Shown here piece by piece: positions 3,425-37,520 of a DNA stretch of 64,000 nt (the first letter of the stretch is position 1; each line of letters opens with the position of its first letter). The DNA comes from Candidatus Poribacteria bacterium (lineage in GTDB: Bacteria > Poribacteria > WGA-4E > PCPOR2b): contig OZ242351.1 in assembly GCA_965208675.1 (NCBI GenBank), positions 3,008,001-3,072,000 of the forward strand. Direction: 5' to 3'. The position numbers and the translations under genes are program-made. Under the pieces are notes generated by a model. That model saw only the letters and a list, made by a program, of their open reading frames with translations, had not been told where the DNA came from and searched no databases.

Positions 3425-3509
3425 TCCGAACTGCTACCTCACCAACAAGGACATGCACTATACAGCACCCTCATAAATTACAAATATGGTTGAGATTATT
3501 CCGATTATT

Positions 3510-4196: not shown

Positions 4197-4294
4197 GAGA
4201 ATATCCTTCTTGATGATGTCCAGTTACGTTGAACCTACTGTTGCCGGATGTCGCTGCTTAGTAACTCGTGTAAGAAACCGTTGCAACAGAATTT

Positions 4295-5215
4295 CTAAAG
4301 ACCGTGAAATTTTGAGAGTATTTGTGCCAAAAGGTTTCCTCCTGCTCCGATTCCAACACTCCAAGTACCCTCCGAAGCCTTTTTCATCATTCCGGCTATC
4401 CACGAAGACACCTTAGGACCAAATTGTCCCGGAGATTTAGGTGTTTCATCTGAATCAACAGCCTCTCTTAGGTCTGCGATGTCTCCTTCAGATACGCCAT
4501 TGGCTTGCAACACACGGCGCATTGACTCAAAGTCAGTTGGTACGATGTTGAATTCTATAGATGAGTCTTTTGCTGTCCCTACTAGGTTTGCAGGTCCGCC
4601 GTAGACGGTCGTATTGAATATTTGTGTAATCGTATCCGAACTAGGGGATTCCCGAGCGTTTGACTTTGGGTCGCCTGCATTGGGATGTTCCTTCCATACA
4701 GCCAATGAAAAGTCCAATATGCGGTCTCGTACTGTATTAAGCAGTTCAACAAAATTTGTTTTGCTGAACTCGGCCCAACACTCTAGGCAAATCATATCCT
4801 TGTAAACAGTTGCACCCAAAGTCAACGACAAATCTCCTGTATCGACTTGAATTATGTCACTGTCGTTTTCCTTTAGAGCTGACTCGACGGTTGCAACACT
4901 CATCCTAAATTCATACTCCATGTAACTTCCCCGAACATCTTTGGGAAGCAACGCTGGAGTAATCGGTGCATTCCTTAGGCCGGAACCAAACGGCCCCGCG
5001 AAATTCCCTTTCACCTGAAGAGACCACACGCGGTACCCGGGCACAGGAACATCCTCTGGATAACCGTTGGATTCCCAAATGAGCCAATTCTCAAGCTGCC
5101 GACTACCCAAATGTGCAGCTAAGAGTTTACACTTCCTGATCACCGTTCCTAGGTCACTTGAGGCATCAATTGCAGCGTTCTGAATGTCTTCCAGTAGGCT
5201 AATTTCAACCTCCAA
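4295..5215 (-). CDS. AbiTii-domain protein
   Basis: N-terminus SLLEDIQNAAIDASSDLGTVIRKCKLLAAHLGSRQLENWLIWESNGY...VPGYR matches the recalled AbiTii signature. Confidence 0.75.
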   Translation of the reverse strand: MEVEISLLEDIQNAAIDASSDLGTVIRKCKLLAAHLGSRQLENWLIWESNGYPEDVPVPGYRVWSLQVKGNFAGPFGSGLRNAPITPALLPKDVRGSYMEYEFRMSVATVESALKENDSDIIQVDTGDLSLTLGATVYKDMICLECWAEFSKTNFVELLNTVRDRILDFSLAVWKEHPNAGDPKSNARESPSSDTITQIFNTTVYGGPANLVGTAKDSSIEFNIVPTDFESMRRVLQANGVSEGDIADLREAVDSDETPKSPGQFGPKVSSWIAGMMKKASEGTWSVGIGAGGNLLAQILSKFHGL

Positions 5216-21521: not shown

Positions 21522-21707
21522 TTACTGCGGCATTAAAATTAGGTACGCCACCATCAGCGGTTGTTCGCCAGACATAAGTCCAATTGTTAAGTATACCTTC
21601 TCTGTTTTAGTTTCTGTAGCGTCTTGATTGATTTCAATATACGACACGGCAGTTGTATTTATGGCCAATCCATGATTTGGCGAAAATTCTTCAAGCAACA
21701 AAAACAT
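21522..21707 (-). CDS. Small hypothetical protein ('MF...L.N...I' family)
   Basis: Preceded by repeat module A with a strong RBS. Confidence 0.55.
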   Translation of the reverse strand: MFLLLEEFSPNHGLAINTTAVSYIEINQDATETKTEKVYLTIGLMSGEQPLMVAYLILMPQ

Positions 21708-21765
21708 CGTAATTCTCCTTTTGTAAGAGATTCTTGGGGGAGTTGGCAGCCTCCCCTTTTTTTTA
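21705..21765 (-). repeat. Intergenic module A (A-tract, GC hairpin, RBS-ATG)
   Basis: Minus strand: taaaaaaaaaggggaggctgccaactcccccaagaatctcttacaaaaggagaattacgATG. Confidence 0.85.
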
Positions 21766-22506
21766 CCTCTTAATCTCGCCCCAAGAGACTGCGAGTGTGT
21801 GTTTTGGGGCGACGGCGAGCACGGTTTTTAGCCCGCGGTTCATGACAGTACGAATGTCGCGTGGGGGGAGCGCGATATTGAATATGGCGAACTCGTCGAT
21901 AAGCCCAGGAAACCTGTTTGGCCCACCAATTATAAACCGGAGATTATTCCTGTCGTCGGGCGGAACGTATGTTGTCGATCTATTCAGTGATGCGAACAAT
22001 TCCCCATCCACATAGATAGCCATTAGATTTTTGCGCCTGCTATGCACAAACGCCCAGTGCCGCCAGACCTCCCGAGTTATCATGCCAGCTTCGATTACCA
22101 ATTCGACGTATGGCGATCCGCACCGCCAACGCACAGCTTCATCCCAAGGCAATAACACGGCGATAACCCCTTCTTTTTCATCGAATGGCTGTAACGTGCT
22201 AAATAGGCGGCCATTCAGACCGTCGAAATTCTTTGTCCACGCCATAACCGTTATTTCCTCAATTTGCTGTTCTGGCGGGAAATCCCTATATGTTGTGAGG
22301 TAGCTTACTCGAAAATTAAGGCATTTTCCAAACATGCCGTCAATCCATGCACGCTCACCTAACACCGATAAACGCTTGCCTGATGCACTGTAGGGGCGCC
22401 AGTCTTTGCCTTCGTTGAAAAGCTAGGCGTCGATAACTAAATCCTTGTTGGCGGCATGGACGGCGATTGCCGCTAAAAAGCATACTGTGCTAATCAGCGC
22501 TTTCAT
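21763..22506 (-). pseudogene. LamG/concanavalin-like secreted protein with an in-frame TAG at codon 28
   Basis: MKALISTVCFLAAIAVHAANKDLVIDA*LFNEGK...GMFGKCLNF...ITVMAW...WRHWAF...YVDG...GLIDEFAIFN...SWGEIKR; TAG at 22423-22425. Confidence 0.75.
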
Positions 22507-22984
22507 TAGCTCGCTCCTCGCTTTCCTTTCTGCTGCGTGCTCTCATTTCTTCAAACTGTTTATCAAATTCAGCCTTGAGTTTGGCTATCCGCGCCTTGCT
22601 TTCGACGCGATACGTATCACGGCTCGCTTCTTCTTTAAATTCGAGTTCTTTCGCGTGTTCCTCCCACGCCTCTTTGTATGCCTGCCAGTGTTCCCACCCG
22701 CCATGAAAGCTATTTATGCGGTCGTTGGGCGCGGGGGTTAGGGCGGAATGGATGATGTCCGATTCTTCAAACGCCTCGCTAACGCTCTTGCCGCGGCGGA
22801 TGGCGGCGGCGATCCAATAGCTTCTATTGGCTCCAAGAAGTTGGCCTAACAAAAAATGACCTTGACGGGGGTTGTCCGTATCGATTTTCTCCGGCGGGCG
22901 ACCGTACACCATGTCGTTGAGGTTATGGGTATGGCTGCATCCGAGGATGAGTAAACATAAGCAGCCGCTAATCAGTGCTTTCAT
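22490..22984 (-). CDS. Lipoprotein, tandem paralog 2
   Basis: MKALISGCLCLLILGCSHTH...AIRRGKSV.EAFEE.D; similar to 22968-23456. Confidence 0.7.
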   Translation of the reverse strand: MKALISGCLCLLILGCSHTHNLNDMVYGRPPEKIDTDNPRQGHFLLGQLLGANRSYWIAAAIRRGKSVSEAFEESDIIHSALTPAPNDRINSFHGGWEHWQAYKEAWEEHAKELEFKEEASRDTYRVESKARIAKLKAEFDKQFEEMRARSRKESEERANESAD

Positions 22985-23456
22985 GGGTATGCCCCTCTCT
23001 GCAACACGACTCTCTGTATTCTTCAAGCCTTTTATCAAAATCGGCTTTGATTTTCGCTTTCCGTGCGTCGCTTTCTGCCTTGTATTTTGCGCGGGATGCT
23101 TTCCTTTCCGCTTCAAGTTGAGCTGTATGTTCTTGCCACGACAGTCTATATGCCTCCCACGTATCCCAATCTGAATAATAGTCGGTGATTCTGTCATTGG
23201 GATTGGGGCTTATGGCATTATAGATGGCGTCCGCTTCTTCAAATGCTTCGTTGACACTCTTGCCGCGGCGGATGGCGTCGCTGATCCAGTGTTCCACATT
23301 GGCTCGGAGCAGGACGCTTAACAATAATTCGGTATCTTTGGGGTCGTCCGGATTCATTGTTTCCGGGGGGCGTGCATAGTGCATTTCGCTAATGTTGTGG
23401 GTATGGCTGCATCCGAGAATGACCAAACACATACAGCTGCTAATCAGCATTTTCAT
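22968..23456 (-). CDS. Lipoprotein, tandem paralog 1
   Basis: GGAGGG RBS; MKMLISSCMCLVILGCSHTH...AIRRGKSVNEAFEE. Confidence 0.7.
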   Translation of the reverse strand: MKMLISSCMCLVILGCSHTHNISEMHYARPPETMNPDDPKDTELLLSVLLRANVEHWISDAIRRGKSVNEAFEEADAIYNAISPNPNDRITDYYSDWDTWEAYRLSWQEHTAQLEAERKASRAKYKAESDARKAKIKADFDKRLEEYRESCCREGHTHESTD

Positions 23457-23677
23457 TTTGTTTCCCTCCTTTGTTTGGAAAGAGCAGGTTGGAGGAAACA
23501 CGCTCACTGGCTAGAATATGAACGCAGTCAAAATACCTGCTCTCTCCGTTGTTTTGACCGTGATATGTCAATCCGGATGACAACATCATCTGGTAGGCGG
23601 CGCGATACGACTTGTTTGCGAAAGTGTTAGGTGCGCATTGGGTGTTACCCGCGTAACCCAACGTACAAAGACTCCCT

Positions 23678-24229
23678 TTACCTTAGTTTCCGCCATTTCA
23701 TTGTTATGCGATTGTCGCGAGTTAAAGAATGCCAGATAAGCGTTAAAACAACGCCATCCCATTTGTATTCCAATAGGACGCCATAATTCCATCTAACATC
23801 GTAACTGTGGTATCGCATAAACAAGTATTTCGAGCTATACGCGAAAATCGCCGATCTGTGTAGTTGGATTCTGTAATATTTGGGATTATTGTCTTCAGGA
23901 TAAAAAGGGCTAACAGATTCCCATTCAGAATCGAAATTGTAGTCTTGTTCTATTACAAATTCAAATTTATGGTCTAGTTCTATAGTTAATTCGCCGCGCA
24001 TTTCTTCTGCATTTTCAACCAGCCAATCACGTCCGTCATTGTATGTCTCCAGCCGATACTTTCCGACCAAATCCTTGTGTAGCGCAACTGCTTCAGATTC
24101 ATGCGTGTGGTCGTGCTGATGGCTATGGTGATGGTCGTGTTCGTGCGGGTGTTCATGTTCAGCTATAGGGTGAGTGTGTCCGCACCCAGCAAGGACGATT
24201 AACGCTATTAACAGAATAAAAGCCTTCAT
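23678..24229 (-). CDS. His-rich lipoprotein with lipocalin-like C-terminal region
   Basis: MKAFILLIALIVLAGC then GHTHPIAEHEHPHEHDHHHSHQHDHTHE; LVGKYRLE. Confidence 0.7.
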   Translation of the reverse strand: MKAFILLIALIVLAGCGHTHPIAEHEHPHEHDHHHSHQHDHTHESEAVALHKDLVGKYRLETYNDGRDWLVENAEEMRGELTIELDHKFEFVIEQDYNFDSEWESVSPFYPEDNNPKYYRIQLHRSAIFAYSSKYLFMRYHSYDVRWNYGVLLEYKWDGVVLTLIWHSLTRDNRITMKWRKLR

Positions 24230-24392
24230 TGGGTCATCTTCCTCTTTGCAAGGTGTTGTGAGTAATTGGCACTCGATTCTTTCAGTCTGTTTAATCTGTA
24301 TCTCGACCTGTCTCATCGCTTCATCGTCCCAACCTTCGGGGAAATCCGCCTCAGTCACAACAACACCTCCTTTCAACCCGTGTCTAACAATA

Positions 24393-24884
24393 TCACTTCA
24401 AATGGCAGCGAAATGTGAGTTGTGCTGGCTTATAGCCCAAGCGACCAATTATTCGTCTAGCTAATTCCACCGTGCGATCGGCACCATGGTATTTTAACAC
24501 CCAGAGTTTTAGTGGATGCACAAATTCCCACCTCCTCTTGACTCTTGGGAGAGGCTGCTTAGCTGAAAATATAGAACACTTTAGCAATCCATCGTACAAT
24601 GCTTTTTTATCTGTACTACGCTCATGCAACTCTCGACACAAAAGCGGTAATACGTCTTTCCAATGTTCAACCTTGCATGTCCGCGTCCCCAATGTAAATG
24701 ATGTTGGCTTGGTATCGACATAGGAAGTTTCATCCGTGACATGATTTTCTTCATCGGTCGGTCGAACACTCATTATGGCTACCAAATCTTTTCTTAGACG
24801 TGCAATATCATCCTTAGTGGCTAGATTGGATAACGCTTCCTTCAAATCTTCTTTGGTGAGCGGTTCGCTTACTGGGTATGGCAT
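24393..24884 (-). CDS. Hypothetical protein; ATKDD coiled segment plus a possible SeqA-C-like DNA-binding domain
   Basis: LATKDDIARL; KPTSFTLG....VEHWKDVLPLLCREL. Family assignment is tentative recall. Confidence 0.45.
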   Translation of the reverse strand: MPYPVSEPLTKEDLKEALSNLATKDDIARLRKDLVAIMSVRPTDEENHVTDETSYVDTKPTSFTLGTRTCKVEHWKDVLPLLCRELHERSTDKKALYDGLLKCSIFSAKQPLPRVKRRWEFVHPLKLWVLKYHGADRTVELARRIIGRLGYKPAQLTFRCHLK

Positions 24885-24971
24885 TCGAGTATTCCCCTTA
24901 TGAGATAGACGACGCGGACAGAAGTATGTGGTGCGGTAGCCGACATAAGAGCCTTCCGCCCCCGTCATATT

Positions 24972-25295
24972 TTATTCGCCATACACTGTGACTGTATAGA
25001 CAGCATAAATCCCCAGCACACTTTTCGACGAATAGTCAACATGGTGAATCTTCGTAATGCCGCCGTTCTTGGCAGCAGCTTCAATGCTCGCATCTCCAGT
25101 TGCGACTAACCCTAATACCGAAGTTACGGTCGCCGAACCGGATTTCATAGCGGCAGTGTCGCTCGCAGTCGCCGTTACCGGTGCTTTAACATCGGTGTAC
25201 AATACACCGGTAACTGGCGACGTGCTATAAGCAACACAACCTGTTAGATAGGATATAGCTACTACAAGAATAAACAACATGCCGAGATGTCTCAT
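24972..25295 (-). CDS. TRL-like family lipoprotein
   Basis: LTGC lipobox; GVLYTDVKAP; SVLGLVATGDASIEAAAKNGGITKIHHVDY. Confidence 0.85.
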   Translation of the reverse strand: MRHLGMLFILVVAISYLTGCVAYSTSPVTGVLYTDVKAPVTATASDTAAMKSGSATVTSVLGLVATGDASIEAAAKNGGITKIHHVDYSSKSVLGIYAVYTVTVYGE

Positions 25296-25354
25296 CGTAA
25301 TATCTCCTTTTTGTAAAGGGTTGTGGGGAAGGCGGCAGCCTCCCCCTTTTTTTA
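25293..25354 (-). repeat. Intergenic module A
   Basis: taaaaaaaagggggaggctgccgccttccccacaaccctttacaaaaaggagatattacgATG. Confidence 0.85.
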
Positions 25355-25549
25355 TTTTGTTTGCGTCGGAATTAACAATCGTTCCAAGTACCTCCAATGC
25401 AATTCTAATGCCTCTGGGGTTCCCTTTTTTATTACTATAGCTCCGTGCTCTTCCGGAGCATAGCCTGCAATACGATTGCCCTCATGGACAATTCTCGTAA
25501 GCCGACTCGTATTTACTAGGGTACGATCGTCGTCGGTTTTTATAAACAT
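25352..25549 (-). CDS. Small hypothetical protein ('MF...LVN...I' family)
   Basis: AGGAGGTG RBS; MFIKTDDDRTLVNTSRLTRIVHE. Confidence 0.6.
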   Translation of the reverse strand: MFIKTDDDRTLVNTSRLTRIVHEGNRIAGYAPEEHGAIVIKKGTPEALELHWRYLERLLIPTQTK

Positions 25550-25555
25550 TGAAAA

Positions 25556-25825
25556 TCACCTCCTTTCAGTCAGCTCTTCATCGCGGGAGGGTCTGTTGAT
25601 AATATCGATAAATCGCCCGTGTTTATCGACATATTCGATGGTACGCAATTCTTGGTTTGCCTTCTTTTTTTCTTCTGCCATATACTCAACCTACCAGGTC
25701 CTGTCTCTATCCAAAGTAATGGTGGTAAAGGGATGCTGGTTGGTATAGGACATGGCGTCTAAGAACCAAAAGCAAAATCCAACGAATGCGAGCGCGATTA
25801 TCGGGGGAATCAAGTTTCGGTTCAT
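25556..25825 (-). pseudogene. Degenerate copy of 27830-28174
   Basis: Near-identical 5' ~230 bp; TTG to TAG at 25691-25693; different 3' end. Confidence 0.8.
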
Positions 25826-25857
25826 TTTGTTTTCTCGCTGACCGTTGGGGCGTATCG

Positions 25858-26250
25858 CTAATCGTCCACATCAAACCTAATATTTCGATAACCGCCGCGC
25901 CAGGAAATAACTAGGGGTGTTACCCCGCATAATGGTTTAAGAGGATTGTCATGAATGATTTTTGTCACCGCGTCATGTTTCCTGCTTACGTTCCACTCTA
26001 TCTCTGTCTGATATAACCCTTTGCAACCGCTGACGGTAACGTTTTCCGCAGGCCCGTCAAACTGTACGTAATACCTAATGCCTGAGCCCCAACCGCCTTC
26101 CCCCCCAGGCATTATACCGGAGGAAACGTGAATAATACGGGCATCTTCGGCATGGGAATCGCAGCCAACGAGCGCAACCAAGCAGATAACGACAGCAAGC
26201 GCCGTGATAATAGCGAGTAGCGGGGACAAGCGTTTGCGCAATCGGGGCAT
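25858..26250 (-). CDS. Lipoprotein
   Basis: MPRLRKRLSPLLAIITALAVVICLVALVGCDS; leader aaaggcagtctacaATG. Confidence 0.6.
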   Translation of the reverse strand: MPRLRKRLSPLLAIITALAVVICLVALVGCDSHAEDARIIHVSSGIMPGGEGGWGSGIRYYVQFDGPAENVTVSGCKGLYQTEIEWNVSRKHDAVTKIIHDNPLKPLCGVTPLVISWRGGYRNIRFDVDD

Positions 26251-26293
26251 TGTAGACTGCCTTTCGTATGCCTTATAATTTAGTTTGAAAAAG

Positions 26294-26380
26294 GGTGGCA
26301 GCGGAGAGGTCGCAGCAAGGTTAAACCTCGCGGAGCCGCGGAAATGCCCCTCAGCATAACCGCGGCGTTTACTCCCTTCC
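26294..26380. repeat. Structured repeat C, copy 1
   Basis: ggagaggtcgcagcaaggttaaacctcgcggagccgcggaaatgcccctcagcataaccgcggcgttta, almost identical to 27701-27793. Confidence 0.85.
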
Positions 26381-26493
26381 ACGATACCTTTCGTGCTTTG
26401 GGGGTGCGACAATCGCATAAAACATCCAAGCAAAGAAAAAGATTGTAAACAACTTTTCCCTGACATTGCAGGTCTCCTTATGATGCGCCTCGG

Positions 26494-26697
26494 TTAGAGA
26501 ACGCCTCCGAGTAGCCAGCCGAACCTGGATTCCACGGCAGCGGCGAAACACCATAGCCCGACAACGAAGACCAAAAAACCTATCCCAAAGAATCCCAGCC
26601 AAACCCAACCGGGGGGACCGTCTCGGCTCCAATCGTCTTCAATTTTACAACCTATTCCGAAAACAACTAGGAATACGATGATGGCAAGCGCTCCCAT
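26494..26697 (-). CDS. Small 2-TM protein
   Basis: aaaggagacctctATG; MGALAIIVFLVVFGIGC... Confidence 0.55.
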   Translation of the reverse strand: MGALAIIVFLVVFGIGCKIEDDWSRDGPPGWVWLGFFGIGFLVFVVGLWCFAAAVESRFGWLLGGVL

Positions 26698-26711
26698 AGA
26701 GGTCTCCTTTG

Positions 26712-26861
26712 TTAATGCCCAAGTAATGCGGCAAAAAAGCGAATGAATGCGTACATTAGGCTGCCGAAGATGAGTAAGACGGCAATCATCATCAATGCCC
26801 ACATGACATACGGCTCGACAAGCTCCCATATCAACAGCAGTAATCCTAGTAATTCCGACAT
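26712..26861 (-). CDS. Small membrane peptide (49 aa)
   Basis: aaaggagacctacaATG; MSELLGLLLLIWELVEPYVMWALMMIAVLLIFGSLMYAFIRFFAALLGH. Confidence 0.55.
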   Translation of the reverse strand: MSELLGLLLLIWELVEPYVMWALMMIAVLLIFGSLMYAFIRFFAALLGH

Positions 26862-26893
26862 TGTAGGTCTCCTTTGTTGGAGCGTATCGCTAG

Positions 26894-27298
26894 TTACTCT
26901 TCACCTAAAGCAGGATCTAGGTGTATTATTCCTCTTTTATCTATCATTGTAATGCCAGCCAGCAGGTCGTCATCAATAGCCATAGCAATTGATGAAGTGC
27001 CGCCATTGCCAGAGACTGCGACACGCCCTCCATACTTATTCACGCCAATTATTACGCCTCTATCACTGAATAGTTTAAAAGTATCCGTGAGAGTGTTGAT
27101 GCTTTCCATATTAGGAACAAGAATTATCCGCGTTGTGCCGTCCGTATCGACGACTCGCAAACTGGTACACTCAATATCTCCTAACTTTGCGCGTTCAGCG
27201 AAGAGGCTAGGCATCAAGACACTAGAGGCTATCATACCTATCAGCATCAATATCCCGCCGATTGTAATATAGGCTAACTTCTGTTTGTAAGTTTTCAA
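26894..27298 (-). CDS. 'GDIEC' family membrane-anchored beta-rich protein
   Basis: AAGGAGG plus TTG start; KQKLAYITIGGILMLIGM...LGDIECTSLRVVD. Confidence 0.65.
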   Translation of the reverse strand: MKTYKQKLAYITIGGILMLIGMIASSVLMPSLFAERAKLGDIECTSLRVVDTDGTTRIILVPNMESINTLTDTFKLFSDRGVIIGVNKYGGRVAVSGNGGTSSIAMAIDDDLLAGITMIDKRGIIHLDPALGEE

Positions 27299-27311
27299 TG
27301 TGTGCCTCCTT

Positions 27312-27638
27312 TTAGCACGAACCTGAAATTGCGCTTAAAATCCAAATGAACACTACTACACCTATGAAAGTAAGGCAACCAAAGCGTTTCATGAACGGAA
27401 TGGGACTACCATCAAGTTCAGATTCTACTTTATGTGTATCTAATTCCCACCCCCTTCCGCATATATCACAAAGCATGAGCCATTTTTTCTCAGTTACAAA
27501 ATTGAAAACCCAGTATACGCCCCAATGTCTATACTCAAGAACAAGCTTGAATCGCCGCTCTTTGTCACACACTTCGCAATGTTGCGTCGCAATCTGACCA
27601 CAATCAATTACATCACCACCAGATCCCCAAACAATCAT
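27312..27638 (-). CDS. Zinc-ribbon membrane protein
   Basis: GAGGAG RBS; MIVWG...CEVC...CDIC...C-terminal TM helix. Confidence 0.7.
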   Translation of the reverse strand: MIVWGSGGDVIDCGQIATQHCEVCDKERRFKLVLEYRHWGVYWVFNFVTEKKWLMLCDICGRGWELDTHKVESELDGSPIPFMKRFGCLTFIGVVVFIWILSAISGSC

Positions 27639-27700
27639 GAGAGCTCCTCGCGGCCCTGTGTCGCACCGGGTTTCCGGGGGAGCCAGGGTCACCGCCATAA

Positions 27701-27832
27701 GGTGGCGGCGGAGAGGTCGCAGCAAGGTTAAACCTCGCGTAGCCGCGGAAATGCCCCTCAGCATAACCGCGGCGTTTAACCTCCCCTCCGCCATAAGATT
27801 ATGGGGGAGGCGGCTGCCTCCCCCTTTTTTTA
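27701..27832. repeat. Structured repeat C, copy 2, followed by the module-A hairpin/T-tract
   Basis: Ends cctccGCCA (27793), then gggggaggcggctgcctcccccttttttt. Confidence 0.85.
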
Positions 27833-28174
27833 TCTCTGTGGTCTTCTACCGGGGTTTCTCATTATCTCCGGGATGCTGGACGGATCCACATAAAAGGGTT
27901 CTGTTTTCAGCTTTTTCGGGCGTTTGATAACAGGGGTTCTGTGGGTAATATCGATAAATCGACCCTGCTTGTTGTGGACGTATTCGATGGTACGAAATTC
28001 ATAATCGTATTTCTTCTTTTCTTCTGCCATGTACTCAATCAACCAAGCCCTTTCTCTATCCAAAGTAATGGCGGTAAAGGGATGCTGGTTGGTATAGGAC
28101 ATGGCGTCTAAAAACCAAAAGCAAAATCCAACGAATGCGAGCGCGATTAGCGGGGGAATCAAGTTTCGCTTCAT
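27830..28174 (-). CDS. Membrane-anchored hypothetical protein (intact paralog of 25556-25825)
   Basis: GGAGGGaaacaaaATG; MKRNLIPPLIALAFVGFCFWFLD. Confidence 0.65.
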   Translation of the reverse strand: MKRNLIPPLIALAFVGFCFWFLDAMSYTNQHPFTAITLDRERAWLIEYMAEEKKKYDYEFRTIEYVHNKQGRFIDITHRTPVIKRPKKLKTEPFYVDPSSIPEIMRNPGRRPQR

Positions 28175-28193
28175 TTTGTTTCCCTCCTGTTGA

Positions 28194-28604
28194 TTACTGG
28201 CTATAGCCGTTTTTGTCGTAGATGGACACGGCGCCGTTGCCATGTTCGTTGATGCCCATGATGGCGTAGCCTTTCGATCTGCCATGCGTACTTACATAGC
28301 CGCCATGTTCATCAGTACCGATTCTCACTTGTTTATTATCTACAGCGTCACCCTCGCGGAGGAAGACATCACCGGCACCGATTATCGTAGCTCTTGTTGG
28401 AGCGTCTTTCCACATAGCAATGGATTGTTTACTAATAAGTATAAACGCATCTTCGAGTCCACTGCCAATCTTCAAGCTCGTGCATTCAATATCTCCGAAT
28501 TTATCCTGTTGTGCGGTTATAGGTGATAGCAGCATCCCAATAATGGTAAAAATACTGCCTAACGCCATTAGCCCTGCCTTTTGCTTCCAAGTGGTTTTGA
28601 TCAT
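28194..28604 (-). CDS. 'GDIEC' family protein
   Basis: MIKTTWKQKAGLMALGSIFTIIGMLLSPITAQQDKFGDIECTSL...MGINEHGNGAVSIYDKNGY. Confidence 0.7.
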   Translation of the reverse strand: MIKTTWKQKAGLMALGSIFTIIGMLLSPITAQQDKFGDIECTSLKIGSGLEDAFILISKQSIAMWKDAPTRATIIGAGDVFLREGDAVDNKQVRIGTDEHGGYVSTHGRSKGYAIMGINEHGNGAVSIYDKNGYSQ

Positions 28605-28804
28605 TTTCGAACCCCTTTTCTGAATTGGTTGTTCCACAAATTAAGAAACTCACGGAAGTCAGTCAATGCTTCGCATAATTGCTCAATTTTCTTATCTGTA
28701 GCATAATGAGTGCCAAAATTCCGAGCGTGGCGTAATGCTTCAGTAAGGTCGTCGATTTCGGAAAGTAGATACAAACGGTTGTCATCGCTGGATGGTGGTC
28801 GCAT
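28601..28804 (-). CDS. Small hypothetical protein
   Basis: AAGGAGG RBS; ATGA overlap with the downstream gene. Confidence 0.55.
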   Translation of the reverse strand: MRPPSSDDNRLYLLSEIDDLTEALRHARNFGTHYATDKKIEQLCEALTDFREFLNLWNNQFRKGVRK

Positions 28805-28872
28805 ATGTAACCTCCTTTTCTGTGGAAAATGTCCGATAATGTAGATTAGCGGACAGCCTTTCAGTCCGCTTT

Positions 28873-30564
28873 TCATCTCTTATAAGCCGACCGGTCAGTA
28901 TTCCCGCCGTATTTCATCGCATACACGAACATATTCACCATGAACCGATGCACGTCCGCGGAACGGCGCATCCGCAGCATTGTCCGGCTGGGGATTTCCG
29001 CCGTCTCCATCGCACAGAGATAATCCTTCCGATTGTACACCACTGCGAGGCGGCGCCCGATTGTAATCCCCTTCTGAAACTTAAACTTTGTCACCTTCGG
29101 GTTGTTTTCAGACCCCCAATACACATCAGACCCGTTCGGCGGAATAGACAGCTTGTAATAGATAGAATAAATCTCGTGGCTGTGGGGAACAGACTGGAGC
29201 GGGTATTCCGGCATAATTTTCTTCAATTCATCAGCGACACGCGCAGCGAACAAGCCCTTGAACCCGCAATCATCGAAAAATAGCAGCCCGCCGCGTTCCA
29301 CAAGATACTTTCTCATCGCCGACCGTTCTGCCGGTGTAAAGCCCGACAGCCACGGCTCGCCGCGCATCAGGTTACGGGTTGTGGTCAACTCCTTATCGTG
29401 ACCTGTCATGACAATTATCGGCGCATCGAGGATTCGCGGATCTGTCATCCGCATCGCGCCGCCCTCCAGTTTCATATCCGCACGCAGCCGAGTGTTGTCC
29501 GATAACCACCGCATGAAACTCGGCAGAGCTGACGGGTCTTGCCACCAATCTGCAAGGGAATGTATTAACCGAGTAAAGCGGATGTGACCTTGTATATCCG
29601 CGCCCTCACCCTCTAAAATAGCACCTAACTTATCATCAGGGACAGTCGTGATTTTAGCCAACGGGTCGTCTCCCGCGCCGCCGGCATCAGCAGCCCCGAC
29701 CGACCCCACCAGCGAGTCAATTCCGCTCGAATGAATCCCGCCGCGGCCGGGCCCGTTGATGTCGTCCGTACCCCGCCCGTGTCCGGTTCTGAGACCCCGG
29801 CGCCTTCCAACCCCCGGCGCAATAACCTCCTCATTGCGTCTAGTGTCAAGCTGTGCCGCCGTCGTGACAGGCGCATCGACAATCGCGTCGGGCGTCAACG
29901 GCGACACGTCCATTGATACGCTTCCCGGCGCCGGCGCAATCGGCTTAGCAATTCTTTGAGCAGCCGAAACGCGAACCGACTGGGCAATCGGTTTCACGGC
30001 TGGGCGCACCGGCTCCGGGGGTTTAGGCTTAATCTTTTTAGGGCGCCTAGTCTTTGGCACCGGCTTTACCATCTCCACGGCAATCGCATCTTCGATAACC
30101 TCCGCATCGTCGGTTGCCAGTATAAAAATGACAAAAGCCAAGATAACGTGCGCCACCGCGGAGATTAACATCGAATTGCGGACTTTACTACTCTTTTCGG
30201 TGACAACCGCCGCCGCGGCCTTGGACGCCAATGATTCGGGTGTGTATCCGGACGCGCTCAGGTAGTAGGTCTGTCCGCCGCAATCAACCTGCATCTGTCC
30301 ACCCGGGAGGCTCCGGAACTGGGCGCTTTCGCCTGCTCGGATTATTTCGCTCACCCGTATAATCGGCAGACTTACCGACCCCGGTTGTGCAATCTCCGCG
30401 TCGATTGTTATTTTTCGGTCTGCGGCGAAAAGCTCAAGCCTGTCAACGCCAATGCTCCGCACACGAACATCGGAAACATTCGATAGCTGATTTTCTCGCG
30501 CCGCCTGTGATTGGAGCGACTTAATCGCCTTCAGAATATTTGCTGTTTCTATCGTGAATTGCAT
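28873..30564 (-). CDS. Fusion: beta-clamp(DnaN)-like N-terminal domain + TM/Pro-rich linker + DUF4159-like domain
   Basis: MQFTIE...LKAI..L...LELFAAD....AEIAQPGSVSLP resembles DnaN domain I; MLISAVAHVIL TM; PIIVMTGH, MRKYLVERGGLLFFDDC and HEIYSIYY are typical of DUF4159. Confidence 0.7.
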   Translation of the reverse strand: MQFTIETANILKAIKSLQSQAARENQLSNVSDVRVRSIGVDRLELFAADRKITIDAEIAQPGSVSLPIIRVSEIIRAGESAQFRSLPGGQMQVDCGGQTYYLSASGYTPESLASKAAAAVVTEKSSKVRNSMLISAVAHVILAFVIFILATDDAEVIEDAIAVEMVKPVPKTRRPKKIKPKPPEPVRPAVKPIAQSVRVSAAQRIAKPIAPAPGSVSMDVSPLTPDAIVDAPVTTAAQLDTRRNEEVIAPGVGRRRGLRTGHGRGTDDINGPGRGGIHSSGIDSLVGSVGAADAGGAGDDPLAKITTVPDDKLGAILEGEGADIQGHIRFTRLIHSLADWWQDPSALPSFMRWLSDNTRLRADMKLEGGAMRMTDPRILDAPIIVMTGHDKELTTTRNLMRGEPWLSGFTPAERSAMRKYLVERGGLLFFDDCGFKGLFAARVADELKKIMPEYPLQSVPHSHEIYSIYYKLSIPPNGSDVYWGSENNPKVTKFKFQKGITIGRRLAVVYNRKDYLCAMETAEIPSRTMLRMRRSADVHRFMVNMFVYAMKYGGNTDRSAYKR

Positions 30565-30575
30565 ACGGCAAGTAT

Positions 30576-31445
30576 TCAATCCTCAATTTTGAACCGATAC
30601 GGAACAATTATGCGGATTGTGACCGGTTTGCCGTCTTTTTGCGCCGGCTTAAACCGCGACCGTTTCAACGCCTCGATTGCTGCTTCATCACAGCCCATTC
30701 CAATTCCCGCTCTTACCTTAATATCTCTGGCTTTGCCGTCAATTCCGATGGTCGCCTCTAACTTCACAACCCCTTCTTTTCCGGCATGACGGGCACGTTC
30801 CGGATACTTCGGCTTCGGCTTATGGATGGCTTTCGGCGGTACGGTGTTATCCGTAATGTCCACGACGGGTACGTTGACAGTGTCGTCTAGCCCAATATCT
30901 GCGTCCGGGATGTCTGTCTCCATCTCGTTAAAAATTGATGGTCGGTCAGGCCTGGTGGTGGGAATCTTCGGCAATTCAGGTTCAATGCTTGGGCGTTCCC
31001 CTTCGGCAATTGGCGGCCTTTCAATCTTGGGAATCTCCGGCGGTGCATCAGGTGAGTCAATAACAAGGTTATCTGAAGGAACAGCATATCCGCCTGAGCC
31101 GGACGGAATGTCCACCGGTTTTACGGGCTGGCTGGGTCGGGTTGTCGGAGTTAGCCGTACTTCGGGTTTAATTGTCTTAGCTTCACGCTCAGGTTCACGA
31201 GGTGGGGGTTTAACCTTCTTCGCCTCAAACATTTCAGTTACCACTGCATCATCATCGTGAATCGCTACATTTTGGGCGATGTGAAAAGCGACAAACAGCA
31301 TGATGACCAAATGGAAAGCAAGAGATACAATCCACCCAAGAGATTTAGACACGCGATTTTTCTTTCTCTGCCGCCGCTCTAAAATCGGCTCAACCGCAGG
31401 AATCCGGCGTTTACGTTCATGATTTAGCGAATTTGACTTGGACAT
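30576..31445 (-). CDS. tonB: TonB-family energy transducer
   Basis: TM with SLAFH (S-x3-H), Pro-rich linker, PKYPERARHAGKEGVVKLEATIGIDG...FKPAQKDGKPV. Confidence 0.9.
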   Translation of the reverse strand: MSKSNSLNHERKRRIPAVEPILERRQRKKNRVSKSLGWIVSLAFHLVIMLFVAFHIAQNVAIHDDDAVVTEMFEAKKVKPPPREPEREAKTIKPEVRLTPTTRPSQPVKPVDIPSGSGGYAVPSDNLVIDSPDAPPEIPKIERPPIAEGERPSIEPELPKIPTTRPDRPSIFNEMETDIPDADIGLDDTVNVPVVDITDNTVPPKAIHKPKPKYPERARHAGKEGVVKLEATIGIDGKARDIKVRAGIGMGCDEAAIEALKRSRFKPAQKDGKPVTIRIIVPYRFKIED

Positions 31446-31495
31446 GGCTCGAAAATCTCCTTCCTTTGTAAGGGGTTGTGGGGGAGGTGCCCCCG
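31443..31495 (-). repeat. Intergenic module A (variant)
   Basis: cgggggcacctcccccacaaccccttacaaaggaaggagattttcgagccATG. Confidence 0.75.
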
Positions 31496-31501
31496 GTTAA
31501 C

Positions 31502-31633
31502 CTACTTTTTGCTAGATTTAGATTTGGGGTTAGGGTTGTTGGTTTTGCCTTTACCCGATTCTTTGCCGTGTACCTTACTTGGCTTATTCTGAGGGTAAAC
31601 AGCCTTACTTGCCTTTCCTTTTTGCTTTGCCAT
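31502..31633 (-). CDS. Small basic Lys/Gly/Ser-rich peptide (43 aa)
   Basis: GGAGGTG RBS; MAKQKGKASKAVYPQNKPSKVHGKESGKGKTNNPNPKSKSSKK. Confidence 0.65.
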   Translation of the reverse strand: MAKQKGKASKAVYPQNKPSKVHGKESGKGKTNNPNPKSKSSKK

Positions 31634-31694
31634 TGTTTATCACCTCCTTCCTTTCTTTTATTGGCTGGGGCTGGTGAAATACGCGATTATATGA

Positions 31695-31949
31695 CTAATT
31701 GTTCCTTCTGCGTCTCTTATGAGGATTGCCTTTTCGCCAACCTGTTTGATATCCCCGCATATAATCCTTGCATGGTATATCAAAACAGATTGGACAATTG
31801 TTGGGAAATACTAATAGCCCAGTCTTGCCGTGCTCTAGCCCCTTCGCATAACCTTTGGCGTAATGACTAGAGACGGCATTCTTAGTTTTAGCTCCACAGC
31901 TCAAACTTAAAATTACCATTATTGTTAGAATAAGTGGTTTATACATCAC
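31695..31949 (-). CDS. Small lipoprotein with YxxGYxxG repeats
   Basis: LSLSC lipobox; YAKGYAKG, YMRGYQTG; preceded by a module A variant (31947-31988). Confidence 0.55.
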   Translation of the reverse strand: MMYKPLILTIMVILSLSCGAKTKNAVSSHYAKGYAKGLEHGKTGLLVFPNNCPICFDIPCKDYMRGYQTGWRKGNPHKRRRRNN

Positions 31950-32000
31950 ATTGTGTAAGGGTTGTGGGGGAAGGGGTAGCCTCCCCCTGTGGAGAAGAAG

Positions 32001-32312
32001 CTAAAGCCTAGGGCTAGCGACAAACATGGGAAATACATGTTCATTCCCTTCCCAGTCGGAAATAGTAATCTCTCCTCTCGAATAATCACTATCATCATCA
32101 TGCTCGATGACAGTAACACAGACTTTTGCGTCACTATTGCGGTCCCGCACAACAATCCTTGGCAATCCTTGATCATCCATGGTCAAGTCAAGGATACCTA
32201 TGATTGAAATTGTGTTGTTCTTAATCCAAATAGTGGGATTACCTTCGTCGTCAACGATTGTAATACTTTTGCAAGTTACAGATTCATAGGTTGGATTAGT
32301 TGTATCAGACAT
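32001..32312 (-). CDS. Beta-rich small protein related to the 'GDIEC' family (no TM leader)
   Basis: YESVTCKSITIVDDEGNP; preceded by module A. Confidence 0.6.
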   Translation of the reverse strand: MSDTTNPTYESVTCKSITIVDDEGNPTIWIKNNTISIIGILDLTMDDQGLPRIVVRDRNSDAKVCVTVIEHDDDSDYSRGEITISDWEGNEHVFPMFVASPRL

Positions 32313-32369
32313 CGTAAATCTCCTCTTTGTAAGGGTTGTGGGGGAGGTGGCGGCCACCCCCTTTTTTTA
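32310..32369 (-). repeat. Intergenic module A
   Basis: taaaaaaagggggtggccgccacctcccccacaacccttacaaagaggagatttacgATG. Confidence 0.85.
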
Positions 32370-32400
32370 TTGCGTTTGCGCCGGGTCGTACTCATCCTCC

Positions 32401-32808
32401 TTACTTATCCCTGAAACTCTCGCATTCAATATCGCCATATTTGGTCTTGCGCAGTAATTGAATTTCTTCCTTCATGGTTTCGACCTCAGTGTGTAAACTT
32501 TTATACCATTCGTATATCTGCTCATCGGTTAGCGGAAAAGGAATCTCGCCCGGCATGATCACAAGTTTATCGGTTGCCGTGGCTTCTTCATTGACCGCGA
32601 ATTCGCTTGCCTCGGCGTTCGTGAGCATTTGTTGTATCAAATGCGGTTTAGGCGTCGAATCAGCCGCCCAAATATCTTCTACGACTTCTGTTTCGGTGAT
32701 CGGCTGGGCGCAGAAGTTACAGATTTTAATGGTCGTCACGTATAAACCCCAGCCGACGATTGCCGCAAATGCGACCGCGGCGATGATGAAGCTAATCAGG
32801 ATTTTCAT
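32401..32808 (-). CDS. Membrane-anchored hypothetical protein, chimeric with a GDIEC tail
   Basis: MKILISF leader; ends KYGDIECESFRDK. Confidence 0.55.
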   Translation of the reverse strand: MKILISFIIAAVAFAAIVGWGLYVTTIKICNFCAQPITETEVVEDIWAADSTPKPHLIQQMLTNAEASEFAVNEEATATDKLVIMPGEIPFPLTDEQIYEWYKSLHTEVETMKEEIQLLRKTKYGDIECESFRDK

Positions 32809-33161
32809 TTTTTCGCTCTTCTTTTCGACAACTCTTTTTCGATATCAGCGTCCACCAGCCGAATATACTCGGGATCGGTTACAATCCACGCATGAGGGAT
32901 TCCGCTTTGGCGCTTTTCGCGGTAATACCGTGACGAATCCGAATTATAAACGAAACAATTTTTAAGGGCATCGTTGGCGGCAGCCGAAACGGCATCGATT
33001 CTTGCCGTCATATCGTCAGCTAAAGCGATGGCATTGTCGATTTGTTCTATCTCTTTCTTTGCAGACGCTCTCACTCCAAGTTGTTTCCGTTTAGCGTCTT
33101 TGAGGCAAGTATCTTTCAAATCGGTGTCGCCCGATTCCATGGATACGGTACCAATAACCAT
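32805..33161 (-). CDS. Hypothetical protein (true start apparently damaged)
   Basis: The frame extends upstream to aaaggagaaac-aaacat with no ATG there; ATGA overlap with the next gene. Confidence 0.45.
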   Translation of the reverse strand: MVIGTVSMESGDTDLKDTCLKDAKRKQLGVRASAKKEIEQIDNAIALADDMTARIDAVSAAANDALKNCFVYNSDSSRYYREKRQSGIPHAWIVTDPEYIRLVDADIEKELSKRRAKK

Positions 33162-33242
33162 AAATTTGTCGCCTTCCAGTTCGTAGGAATAAATCCCGGG
33201 CGTGATTGGCTTCTTGACGAGATAACGATGTTTGTTTCTCCT

Positions 33243-33422
33243 TTAAAAAAACTCGATGTCTCTGACTAAATTGGCGTAAGCATCGAAAATTTTCAATTTC
33301 AGGGTTCGGTGACTGGGTAGGGTTTTATCCGTTTGGATATACTGTCCGCGCGGTAAACCGGAATCTTTATCCGCGGAGCCGAGGATGACCAGACAGATCA
33401 AGCAGCTAATCAGGGATTTCAT
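33243..33422 (-). CDS. Short secreted peptide or fragment with 'MKSLISC' leader
   Basis: Leader shared with the 22968-23456 family (CLVILG), body unrelated. Confidence 0.45.
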   Translation of the reverse strand: MKSLISCLICLVILGSADKDSGLPRGQYIQTDKTLPSHRTLKLKIFDAYANLVRDIEFF

Positions 33423-33627
33423 TGTCAGCCCCTTTTGCCGTAACTGTGAGGTGAATATATTTTTCTTCATCATAAAAAATGTAGATATGGCCGTCTTTGG
33501 ATGTATCTAAATGGGTAATAGAGGCTCGAAGGTAGTTTTGGACTCCTTGGGCTTCCGTATTGCGATAACCCACTCTGACAACGCTTTCATCAGTGCTGTC
33601 CAAATTAAACTTTTCTGCTTTTAACAT
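33406..33627 (-). CDS. Small hypothetical protein
   Basis: aaaggagatttacaATG leader; stop supplied by junction motif B. Confidence 0.55.
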   Translation of the reverse strand: MLKAEKFNLDSTDESVVRVGYRNTEAQGVQNYLRASITHLDTSKDGHIYIFYDEEKYIHLTVTAKGADNEIPD

Positions 33628-33644
33628 TGTAAATCTCCTTTCGA

Positions 33645-34046
33645 TTACTTGTGGATATAACCGTTTTTGTCGTAGGCAGATATGGCGCCGTGCCCCTTGT
33701 CGTCGATACCCATGATGACAGAACCTTTCGATCTTACATGGGTGCTTACAAAACCTCCGTGTCTATCCGTACCGATTATCACTTTTTTATCCCCTTCGCG
33801 GAGGAGCACTTCATCGGCACTGATCACCGCACCTCTAAATGTTGGACCGTCGTCGAAAATCGCAATGTCATATGGTCTAATATGTATAAGCACATCGCCA
33901 CTGCTAACCTTCAAGCTCTCACATTCAATATCTCCGAATTTTTCCTTTTGTGCGGATATGGGCGACAGCAGCAGGCCGATAATGGTGAAAATACTGCCTA
34001 ACGCCATTAGACCTGCCCTTTACTTCCAATTAATCAGGGGTTTCAT
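33645..34046 (-). pseudogene. 'GDIEC' family paralog of 28194-28604 with TAA at codon 9 (could restart at ATG 34007)
   Basis: MKPLINWK*RAGLMALGSIFTIIG versus MIKTTWKQKAGLMALGSIFTIIG; TAA at 34020-34022. Confidence 0.65.
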
Positions 34047-34329
34047 TAAATATCTCCGTTTCAAGGCGATTGATGAAATTTAACAACGTCTCAGGGTCAT
34101 CATGATACCTATCAAGTGCGGACGCCTTTTCGCCCGGTTTCAGGTTTTTCGCTAACGTCCTTTCGAGACGCCAACCGCTACCCTTCAAACCTACAAATCC
34201 CTTGAGCTCGTCAAACGATTTTAGAGGGAACGATACCGCCCAGTATATATCATCATAGTACAGGCGCCCGTAAACACGTCTGTGCCGTGGTGGAGGCGGG
34301 GAAGTCCGTACTGTCATTTTTTCAGTCAT
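34030..34329 (-). CDS. Hypothetical protein
   Basis: AGGAGGAGG RBS; 99 aa. Confidence 0.6.
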   Translation of the reverse strand: MTEKMTVRTSPPPPRHRRVYGRLYYDDIYWAVSFPLKSFDELKGFVGLKGSGWRLERTLAKNLKPGEKASALDRYHDDPETLLNFINRLETEIFNETPD

Positions 34330-34659
34330 AACCTCCTCCTTTTTTTATAAAATGTCCGATCATATGGGTTAGCGGGCATTTTCATTGGTGGAAAAATGGG
34401 CGGCGAGGAACAAGCACCTTATGAGCGTGACTTTCAGTCCGCTCTTCATCGCGGCAAAGGCTGCAATCCTACTTACCCGATTAGGAATCCTATTTTCCTA
34501 TTCGGGTATCCGTCGGCAATCTGCGTTAGCGCGGTTGCCGCCATAAGGCGACGGGGGCAGGAGTAAGTGTGCGATCGGTCACAATCTGCATGAATCCCCC
34601 GCTCCCCGTCATAAGATTATGAGTTGCATCAAGCATATACAGCACACCGCCTGAAAAAA

Positions 34660-36639: not shown

Positions 36640-37083
36640 TGAGAAGGTTTTAGGGGAGGATTAGGTCGGTCAATGGATAACTTTTTTGTGGAAAAAACGT
36701 TTTTAAGAAAAAAATTTAATTTTTTTCTGTAATTACCGGGTGGTGTCGGGTGCGGTTAGGAAGGGGATCTCTATCGCGTTCGCTATCCACTCGCTTGATC
36801 GCACCTACGGTAAAGCGTAACGAGTAAAGCGTAATGCGTAAACGGTTAGGATTTGTGTATAGTGCGTTGCGGTTGGAAACAGAGCCTACCGGGATGGACC
36901 GCGCAGTTTATTCAACTTCAATCTCCGATACAGGGTTGATTGACCAATTTTCAACGCTTACACCTTAGTGGACAAGTATGACTGTCCAAACATTGGGGGT
37001 AGGTACATGGAAAAAGGGTTGCCCGGGATTAGCAGCGGTGTTGGTGTTTGGTAATCAATTGGGATGGGTGAGGTTTGAAAAGC

Positions 37084-37520
37084 GTTGGGTTTCGCTATAT
37101 CCATCGAGTTTTGTACGCTGTGAGTTTGATAGGGCGGTTCGTTTTCACGGGTGTTTTTGGCTGAATCCGCTCTACCCAACCTACAAGAGCTGTCTGAACT
37201 GCGACTCATATGACTGAATGATGGGCTATGATTAAGAGAGCACATAATCATCCAGTGTTGAAGCGTGGTTTTTGTAGGTTGGGGTAAGCGGAGTAAATGA
37301 AAGACGTGAAAAATGTTGAGTGGATATTGGTAAATGAAGTTGTTTAGAATTTGTTAAAAAGTAGCGAACCCAACGCTTTTGGATATTTCGAGGCGTTTGA
37401 TTTATTGGAAGCGGGAGCGGAGAAGACAATCGTCTTCGCTATACGCTCAGTTGATCCCAACCTACAAGAACTACAAAAACCTGACCCCCTCTAGCTCCCC
37501 CTTGCCAAGGGAGAGGATTT
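37084..37520. repeat. REP-like cluster (gtaggttggg/cccaacctac and cccccctagctccccc families)
   Basis: gttgggtttcgc...ccgctctacccaacctac; gtaggttggggtaagcgg...gcgaacccaac...cccaacctac. Confidence 0.75.

Follow-up and report, generated by a model that had tools for sequence, protein, structure and literature searches.

The stretch considered here is 64,000 nucleotides (nt) long and comes from a Candidatus Poribacteria bacterium (GenBank assembly GCA_965208675.1, contig OZ242351.1, positions 3,008,001 to 3,072,000 of the forward strand). The whole of it is called the window, its positions are counted from its first letter, and the genome containing it (G000) consists of 4,892,038 bases in one contig. 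A variable island at approximately 13–41 kb of the window is rich in small exported and membrane proteins and is flanked by housekeeping genes. Several genes of this island begin with the same 17-nt element, ATGAAANNNCTGATTAR (ATGAAAnnnCTGATTAR), which also lies across the ends of the genes before them. A pattern search returned six exact matches in the window, named S1–S6 and all on the minus strand (Table 1); a preliminary description had placed six sites at exactly these coordinates, to which the strand is now added. Inverted copies were absent from the window, and relaxing the pattern to two mismatches gave two further window sites, both unrelated.

In frame 1, the six copies open with the peptides MKMLIS, MKALIS, MKALIS, MKILIS, MKSLIS, and MKPLIN. 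In frame 3, the motif closes upstream open reading frames (ORFs) with the endings NENAD (a doubtful 73-aa ORF with a TTG start), HESTD, NESAD, NEIPD, and NETPD, each followed by a stop. The genes upstream of S4, S5, and S6 are called upS4, upS5, and upS6. Co-directional overlap of stop and start is present with a spacing of -17 at four well-supported gene pairs (SHTH1/SHTH2, SHTH2/LamG, upS5/S5, and upS6/GDIEC) and of -4 at upS4/S4; the doubtful ORF before S1 also stands at -17. The dual-frame reading of the preliminary description, with MKxLI(S/N) starts and (N/H)ExxD upstream endings, was thus confirmed on the minus strand, as was its remark that one upstream gene stops instead in the ATGA at 32805.

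Table 1. Copies of the 17-nt motif and the genes that adjoin them, in window positions (SD, Shine–Dalgarno; "stop" marks a termination codon).
Feature	Positions	Strand	Description
Motif copy S1 (ATGAAAATGCTGATTAG)	23440..23456	-	SHTH1 start; strong SD GGAGGG 7 nt upstream
SHTH1, 162 aa	22968..23456	-	Leader MKMLISSCMCLVILGC, lipobox-like LGC; ends HESTD-stop inside S2
Motif copy S2 (ATGAAAGCACTGATTAG)	22968..22984	-	SHTH2 start and SHTH1 stop; 17-nt overlap
SHTH2, 164 aa	22490..22984	-	Tandem paralog of SHTH1; ends NESAD-stop inside S3
Motif copy S3 (ATGAAAGCGCTGATTAG)	22490..22506	-	LamG start and SHTH2 stop
LamG (Laminin_G_3) gene	21763..22506	-	Leader MKALISTVCFLAAIAVHA; TAG at codon 28 (22423-22425)
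upS4, 118-aa gene	32805..33161	-	Stops in the ATGA of S4; 4-nt overlap
Motif copy S4 (ATGAAAATCCTGATTAG)	32792..32808	-	
S4 gene, 135 aa	32401..32808	-	MKILIS and membrane span; ends ...KYGDIECESFRDK-stop
upS5, 73-aa gene	33406..33627	-	Ends NEIPD-stop inside S5
Motif copy S5 (ATGAAATCCCTGATTAG)	33406..33422	-	
S5 gene, 59 aa	33243..33422	-	MKSLISCLICLVILGS...; orphan body
upS6, 99-aa gene	34030..34329	-	Ends NETPD-stop (TAA) inside S6
Motif copy S6 (ATGAAACCCCTGATTAA)	34030..34046	-	Ancestral GDIEC gene start
GDIEC-family gene	33645..34046	-	MKPLINWK-stop-RAGLMALGS...; TAA at codon 9 (34020-34022)
Nearest GDIEC paralog	28194..28604	-	75% nt identity to 33635-34029; starts MIKTTWKQ without motif
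GDIEC-family members in the window	26894-27298, 28194-28604, 33645-34046		

The set of copies departs strongly from random expectation. No match to ATGAAANNNCTGATTAR was found in 100 dinucleotide-preserving shuffles of the window. The whole of G000 contains seven copies by pattern search, six of them inside 11.6 kb, and the seventh is another gene start, outside the island. The genome scans covered 41 genomes, that is, G000 and 40 relatives including G001, G002, and G003; the 17-mer is present in 13 of these, with 0–2 copies in each relative and more than two in G000 only. There are 49 MKxLI sites in G000, 18 of them at the start of ORFs with 50 codons or more; with the two nonsense-shortened island copies, this gives 20 MKxLI ORF starts genome-wide, six of them in the island. 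These six of 20 lie within 0.24% of the genome (binomial P ~7e-12). The codon triple AAA-CTG-ATT is used at all six island starts and at three of the 14 elsewhere (hypergeometric P = 0.002), and its probability expected from codon usage in long ORFs is 0.056 per MKxLI start, or 3e-8 for six independent starts. Because of this triple identity and clustering, shared descent, copying, or a nucleotide-level constraint on the copies is needed. The motif had been suspected of being non-random, which the genome-wide count and codon usage bear out; generic MKxLI composition or codon bias is not the explanation.

The SHTH genes are a tandem pair behind S1 and S2, with 55% amino acid and 69% nucleotide identity. 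A Sec/lipoprotein signal peptide has a short basic n-region, a hydrophobic h-region, and then either an A-x-A-type site or a lipobox (L-x-[GA]-C); the shared pattern of the S1 and S2 leaders, MK.LIS.C.CL.ILGC, fits a lipobox by inspection. The leaders of S1, S2, and S5 are 67–77% identical over the 30 nt after the 17-mer. The SHTH unit is 472–478 nt long, with leader starts at its bounds, and its number varies: one 2159-nt database contig carries three SHTH paralogs, compared with two in the window, and among the matches listed, contigs of the sponge-metagenome runs X5 and X6 join 22966 back to 22489, a step of 478 with nine shared letters, which indicates a putative extra SHTH2-like copy. Growth and shrinkage of the array between leader copies is the simplest reading, for which unequal crossing-over would be the mechanism. 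Using one query, SHTH was found in one of the 41 genomes, G000 itself. The E-x-x-D ending occurs in nine of nine aligned SHTH sequences, so the overlap is kept where present. The database proteins used here (P0002–P0013) had their junctions read from protein termini alone. One of them, P0007, has a mature part of SHTH1 type, identical over ~90 residues, together with a different leader (MKQILINAIAAAVLCLT), for which a donor was sought in G000 and none was found. In metagenome contigs, a search for the DNA surrounding the database SHTH homologs matched 599 stretches to a pattern, none of them encoding a relative, and an Atlas look-up gave no named family (best 0.81). Separately, SHTH1 and an unrelated membrane protein (ATG 28174, MKRNLIPP...) are each preceded by the identical 19-nt ribosome-binding site (RBS) plus start, AGGAGGGAAACAAAATGAA (23457-23475 and the 28175-28193 region), and the leader of the membrane protein looks like a two-codon-spacer variant of MKxLI.

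The body behind S3 is Laminin_G_3 (PF13385), with a score of 53.6 bits (Pfam gathering cut-off 27.6; E = 3.5e-14) for the sequence with the TAG read through. This in-frame TAG sits where LamG relatives keep a conserved Trp. By inspection, the leader (...AIAVHA-A) fits a type I site. All copies of this LamG subfamily that were found carry the leader, and five LamG leaders (S3, a second one in G000, two in G001, and one in G002) are 60–97% identical past the 17-mer. Their upstream contexts differ. The second G000 LamG starts GTGAAAGCGCTGATTAGC, with a GTG start codon, and no ORF upstream of it runs into the motif; the G001 LamG on L005 and the G002 LamG, which has CTGACTAG, are both without an upstream ORF. 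The second G001 LamG follows an unrelated ORF (304 aa or longer) whose NESTD-stop ending lies in the motif.

Members of the GDIEC family carry a membrane span at the N-terminus, followed by AQ(K/R)DKFG(D/E)IEC and a beta-rich body. The family is large and lineage-restricted, with ~27–31 matches in G000, 16–20 in each same-genus genome, and any match at all in 10 of the 41 genomes. No Pfam match was found for it; the best Atlas matches are unnamed clusters whose commonest taxon is Candidatus Poribacteria, and a gp37_trimer lead from the Atlas was weak (0.89) and was not used. The leader of the S6 gene (...LLSPISA-Q) fits a type I site by inspection. Its TAA occupies a position where relatives have Gln or His, and a restart at ATG 34007 is possible. 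The G002 ortholog is intact (MKPLINWKHKLGLMALGS..., with a His codon) and shares the same 17-mer, here preceded by another gene (156 aa) that overlaps it by the 4 nt ATGA; homologs of upS6 in G002 and G003 end otherwise, without the motif. The nearest paralog in the window overlaps its own upstream gene (28601-28876) by ATGA, and in self-comparison its alignment with the S6 gene extends no further than 34029, where the S6 motif has its 3' edge. Compared with its paralogs, the island gene differs at 12 of 12 bases in codons 2–5 and is ~75–80% identical thereafter. The island gene and the nearest paralogs have in common AATTGGAAG and then ~100 nt; the nearest subfamily begins MF.IQNWK, and the 17-mer is found in the island copy only.

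The S4 protein can be assigned as a truncated GDIEC-family member through its intact relative P0012. MKxLIS is kept in all four aligned S4 sequences (the window protein, P0010, P0011, and P0012), and by inspection the leader looks like an uncleaved membrane anchor. After the 17-mer, S4 has 50% identity over 30 nt to a G002 membrane protein starting MKVLIS (TTGATTAG), which itself is without overlap. The S4 body was found in none of the three same-genus genomes. In P0011, MKVLIS... continues in frame from the N-terminal part of upS4, as expected where the upstream frame is the one stop-free frame of the motif. As a side observation (window 32001-32808), the S4 gene ends where GDIEC-family bodies begin and a hairpin-plus-RBS cassette comes next, followed by a gene (ATG 32312) that starts at the body equivalent YESVTCKSITIVDDEGN; P0012 has the uninterrupted form, and the two genes look like one gene split by the inserted cassette.

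Over the 30 nt after the 17-mer, the S5 leader shows 67–73% identity to those of the SHTH genes; it reads LGS, with Ser instead of the lipobox Cys. The overlap ending of the gene before it is kept in P0013 (96% identity to upS5), which ends NETPD. In G002, the upS5 homolog is followed by a dead motif copy with ATT for ATG, a change that creates an earlier TAA.

Two of the six leaders, those of LamG and GDIEC, are cut from their bodies by in-frame nonsense codons, which look like fresh nonsense mutations a few codons past the leader. Contigs of the probable source runs match the assembly, an agreement that is not independent. Stop-codon reassignment was rejected as the reason for the in-frame TAG and TAA, because both codons also end upstream genes in the motif and the stops replace Trp and Gln/His codons. 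The preliminary description held that the same leader heads unrelated bodies, two orphans among them. This stands for Laminin_G_3, the SHTH lipoproteins, and GDIEC; one of the orphans (32401-32808) is the truncated GDIEC member, and the LamG and GDIEC bodies are now separated from their leaders.

The leader is also found where there is no junction. Outside the window, four of seven motif-bearing starts or relics in this genus are without an overlapping upstream gene, so the 17-mer is kept without a junction role. Furthermore, similarity continues past the 17-mer in the S1/S2/S5 and LamG groups, which makes the leader, not the 17-nt junction, the shared unit. On comparison of these genes, the leader is part of the downstream gene, overlap or not. 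A junction dedicated to joining two genes, as had been proposed, is contradicted by the homologs that carry the leader without the overlap (the L005 LamG gene of G001, the LamG gene of G002, the second one of G000, and the G002 MKVLIS gene), which the preliminary description had itself named as a refuting outcome, and by the G002 GDIEC gene, in which the same leader follows a different gene with the 4-nt ATGA overlap instead.

Each of the six starts has an SD-like purine tract 6–7 nt upstream, and the tracts of the S1–S6 set are GGAGGG, GAGGGG, GAGGAG, a weak AAGAGC, AGGGG, and GGAGA. RNA structure at the junctions was rejected, as the 90-nt RNAs fold no better than shuffles (z +0.13 to +1.33), and Rfam gave no family at the motif and two sub-threshold matches elsewhere. 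The tracts and the unstructured junctions together allow independent initiation. A crude overlap census of G000 returned 115 candidates for 4-nt overlaps and 14 for 17-nt overlaps. The latter include three island copies and an ordinary ABC permease/ATPase pair (MKPLLS and HETPA-stop), so 17-nt overlaps arise without a special device. According to excerpts of two reports, the enriched spacings are -4, -1, and -8, longer overlaps are rare, and reinitiation falls steeply with distance (PMC12548453, PMC10666635). The usual origin of an overlap, as given in an excerpt of the latter, is loss of the upstream stop and use of the next in-frame stop inside the downstream ORF (PMC10666635). Some termination–reinitiation coupling at the -17 and -4 junctions is plausible from their arrangement, and coupling at -17 is not required to explain the sequence.

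These observations are probably best accounted for by a reused, lineage-specific export or anchor leader, of which the 17-mer is the 5' end and whose copies arose by descent and local copying. The 17-mer would be the start codon plus codons 2–6 of an MK-x-LI-S/N leader, with a hydrophobic stretch behind it, used by several small extracytoplasmic-protein genes of the hypervariable island. The leader would be owned by the downstream gene, each copy having an SD-like tract of its own and a start region without structure, and an export function is inferred for it from its residues. The codons ATG-A.. and CTG-ATT-AG/AA would supply TGA twice in the +1 frame and TAG or TAA once in the +2 frame. Owing to these codon-borne stops, an upstream ORF that lacks its own stop or is set against the leader would end 4 or 17 nt in, and one in the third frame would fuse to the leader instead. 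The (N/H)ExxD tails would then be a by-product of the codon choice of the leader and not a selected peptide. The copies would have come about in three ways: by SHTH tandem duplication bounded by leader copies, with copy number varying between strains; by inheritance within the LamG subfamily; and by 5' segment replacement in GDIEC-family genes. If this is true, the locus is a small, clear example of a symbiont rebuilding its exported proteins by placing one leader on unrelated bodies (lectin-like LamG, helical lipoproteins, and GDIEC proteins), with the overlaps as a side effect of codons. It would also be suited to measuring the rate of 5' leader exchange by population long reads, and it warns that repeated dual-frame junctions are not to be taken for designed devices.

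Several findings weigh against the reused leader as the full account. None of the 14 fixed bases varies among the six copies, compared with ~25–77% identity in the flanks, and the LamG leaders have two mismatches in 70 fixed positions, compared with 60–97% pairwise identity just downstream. This points to an extra nucleotide-level constraint or conversion acting on the 17-mer, which simple descent does not fully explain. S4 and S6 resemble the other leaders weakly beyond the 17-mer, so their identity could be independent; chance identity for one such copy was estimated from codon-triple rates at under 1–3%. In addition, breakpoints fall at the edges of the motif. The similarity between G000 and G002 at the S6 gene begins at 34047, the 5' edge, the GDIEC paralog alignment stops at 34029 on the other side, and one contig of run X5 has 34424 joined to 33423, the base just 5' of the S5 start, although this last joint, among the matches listed, comes from a single low-depth contig with 85% likeness and is to be treated with care. 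Such edges are consistent with recombination at or in the motif, and they would be just as likely if rearrangements survived only when they left a start intact.

Part of this evidence also favours the proposal made in the preliminary description, namely a selected dual-frame junction that couples the translation of neighbours and provides microhomology by which leaders recombine onto new cargo. An identical 17-mer on unrelated bodies, 14 of 14 fixed bases invariant around a freely variable codon 3, breakpoints at motif edges, motif-bounded SHTH units of variable copy number, and three kinds of upstream gene ending in the motif in this genus would all suit it, and the relatives' variants CTGACTAG and TTGATTAG retain both out-of-frame stops. 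It is nevertheless unlikely, given the four of seven outside starts without an overlapping upstream gene and the leader similarity past 17 nt. A length of 17 nt is below the usual minimum for RecA-dependent exchange, which counts against it as well. A tblastn search of G000 with the upstream genes of G002 and G001 found none beside a motif, that is, no reciprocal recombinants; every start has its own SD-like tract, with fold z of +0.1 to +1.3; and -17 is not among the enriched spacings, nor is efficient reinitiation favoured at a distance, as far as excerpts of the two reports go (PMC12548453, PMC10666635). As to leader swapping, the evidence of P0007 and of GDIEC codons 2–5 supports 5' exchange but not crossing-over inside the 17-mer. 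The idea of a coupling-and-swapping junction is therefore supported in part, in that leaders are shared and sometimes exchanged. A stronger form, in which the 17-mer is selected as portable gene punctuation and is itself a short-homology recombination substrate in the variable islands of the lineage, is more doubtful still. If it were true, any cargo behind the 17-mer would acquire both a site of initiation and an export leader, with whatever precedes it cleanly terminated, a recombinase-free route to new exported proteins that resembles exon shuffling. Such a cassette junction would be of wider interest for secretome evolution in host-associated bacteria, and it is not supported yet.

Nucleotide-level invariance in unrelated genes, synonymous positions included, is also what a cis-regulatory RNA site over the start codon would produce, as the target of a small RNA (sRNA) or an RNA-binding protein co-regulating exported proteins. 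Its position exactly on the translation-initiation region and its conservation in orthologs from three species of the genus agree with this, but there is no Rfam match, no conserved structure, and no exact antisense copy elsewhere in G000, the seventh copy being a gene start; moreover, two of the six genes are nonsense-broken, which argues against strong selection on the set. Such a site is improbable. Still less credit is given to the motif as the crossover site of a cassette or site-specific recombination system that resembles a shufflon, an integron, or mycoplasma Vsa/Vpma. The short conserved 5' sequence on several surface or exported genes of a variable island and the rearrangements between strains speak for it, yet the scan of 63 window ORFs gave no recombinase, integrase, or transposase domain, every copy is direct, with none inverted, SD and ATG at every copy leave no silent cassettes, and 34 island proteins gave no PHROG matches. 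For an integron in particular, the 63 window ORFs gave no integrase domain and the junctions fold like shuffles; no formal attC search was made. Chance or generic signal-peptide composition has next to nothing left to recommend it. Both MK starts and n-regions rich in L/I are frequent, G000 has an unrelated copy elsewhere, and relatives have 0–2 each, but the empty shuffles, the clustering, and the codon-triple rates given above refute it for the set; it is possible for the outlier copy S6 only.

The island around these genes is a mosaic, with several internal duplications and a repeated hairpin-plus-RBS cassette in self-comparison, and the same-genus genome G002 is syntenic with the stretch in patches only. 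Its Pfam families include TonB_C, DUF4159, TRL, FlgD_ig/Por_Secre_tail, GHL15, PorV/UPF0164-like, and Laminin_G_3, and many ORFs are without a family. The runs that contain parts of the stretch are sponge metagenomes, and no RNA runs are listed for it. A phage or mobile-element origin was rejected, with no PHROG match for 34 island proteins and no Pfam recombinase; a Pfam search of the 63 ORFs of the window likewise gave no integrase, recombinase, transposase, or reverse transcriptase. Among the duplications, 25589-25832 matches 27935-28181 with 87% identity and 26294-26386 matches 27701-27795 with 93%, and in-frame stops are present in the MKRNLIPP gene copy at 25.6 kb. The intergenic cassette is 60–75 nt long (21705-21765, 25293-25369, and 32310-32384, with partial copies at 27799-27833, 31449-31489, and 31954-31988) and is composed of an A-run, a GC-rich hairpin, and then CTTACAAAAGGAGAnnTTACGATG, which is the RBS and start of the next gene; its hairpin plus T-run reads as a terminator on the plus strand only.

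Solitary units resembling the repeats of CRISPR (clustered regularly interspaced short palindromic repeats) are found on the minus strand at 25563-25582, 28858-28877, and 34431-34450, 15–100 nt upstream of small island genes. Each has a small hairpin, CCGC-GATGAAGA-GCGG, followed by ACTGAAAG. There are nine in G000, two of them 66 nt apart outside the window (1533630/1533696), and a unit in L005 abuts the RBS of the motif-bearing G001 LamG. Elsewhere, dozens of repeats of the segment at ~37010-37265 form tandem-like clusters in G002 (matches to query 235-490). At 2543-5215, a protein with an AbiTii domain (PF18864, E = 1.4e-35) is encoded two genes away from a Ser/Thr protein kinase; an unannotated 228-aa ORF intervenes, and the AbiTii protein and the kinase may be a defence-related pair.

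Several known systems resemble parts of this locus. Translationally coupled overlapping pairs, as described in excerpts of three papers, are likewise co-directional and tightly packed, with the stop in or near the downstream start (Huber et al. 2019, PMC6728339; Huber et al. 2023, PMC10666635; a 2025 review, PMC12548453). One junction here is of the classic ATGA type, and the likely stop-loss origin of the overlaps is of the kind given in an excerpt of PMC10666635. The four 17-nt overlaps differ in lying outside the spacings -4, -1, and -8 that excerpts of PMC10666635 and PMC12548453 name as enriched, and each downstream gene here has an SD-like tract, the repetition coming from a shared leader and not from a convergent junction design.

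The Mycoplasma loci Vpma, Vsp, and Vsa are similar in having a conserved 5' or signal-peptide part and differing mature parts in a cluster of surface (lipo)proteins, where recombination changes the body behind the conserved 5' end; in the excerpted account, they use a neighbouring tyrosine recombinase (Xer1, Mbr, or HvsR), inversions, one promoter, and silent genes (PMC2268961). In contrast, no recombinase domain was found in the window, and its copies are direct, have SD and ATG each, and head unrelated folds. Tandem paralog arrays, for instance, the immunity genes of T7SS (type VII secretion system), resemble the head-to-tail SHTH array and its strain-variable copy number, as far as an excerpt describes them (PMC9484751). 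The SHTH unit differs in being bounded by a leader start that also ends the preceding copy, and its array runs into an unrelated LamG gene with the same leader start. It is worth setting beside these the first codons themselves, which are more conserved than the rest of the leader, at starts that fold no better than shuffles. Eyre-Walker and Bulmer reportedly described in 1993 that bacterial genes undergo less synonymous change at their 5' ends, and such an effect would explain the conservation among orthologs but not the identity across unrelated families. Taken together, the locus seems fairly ordinary, a combination of known phenomena in which conserved leader modules of surface-protein families meet overlapping genes through ordinary gene-family tinkering.

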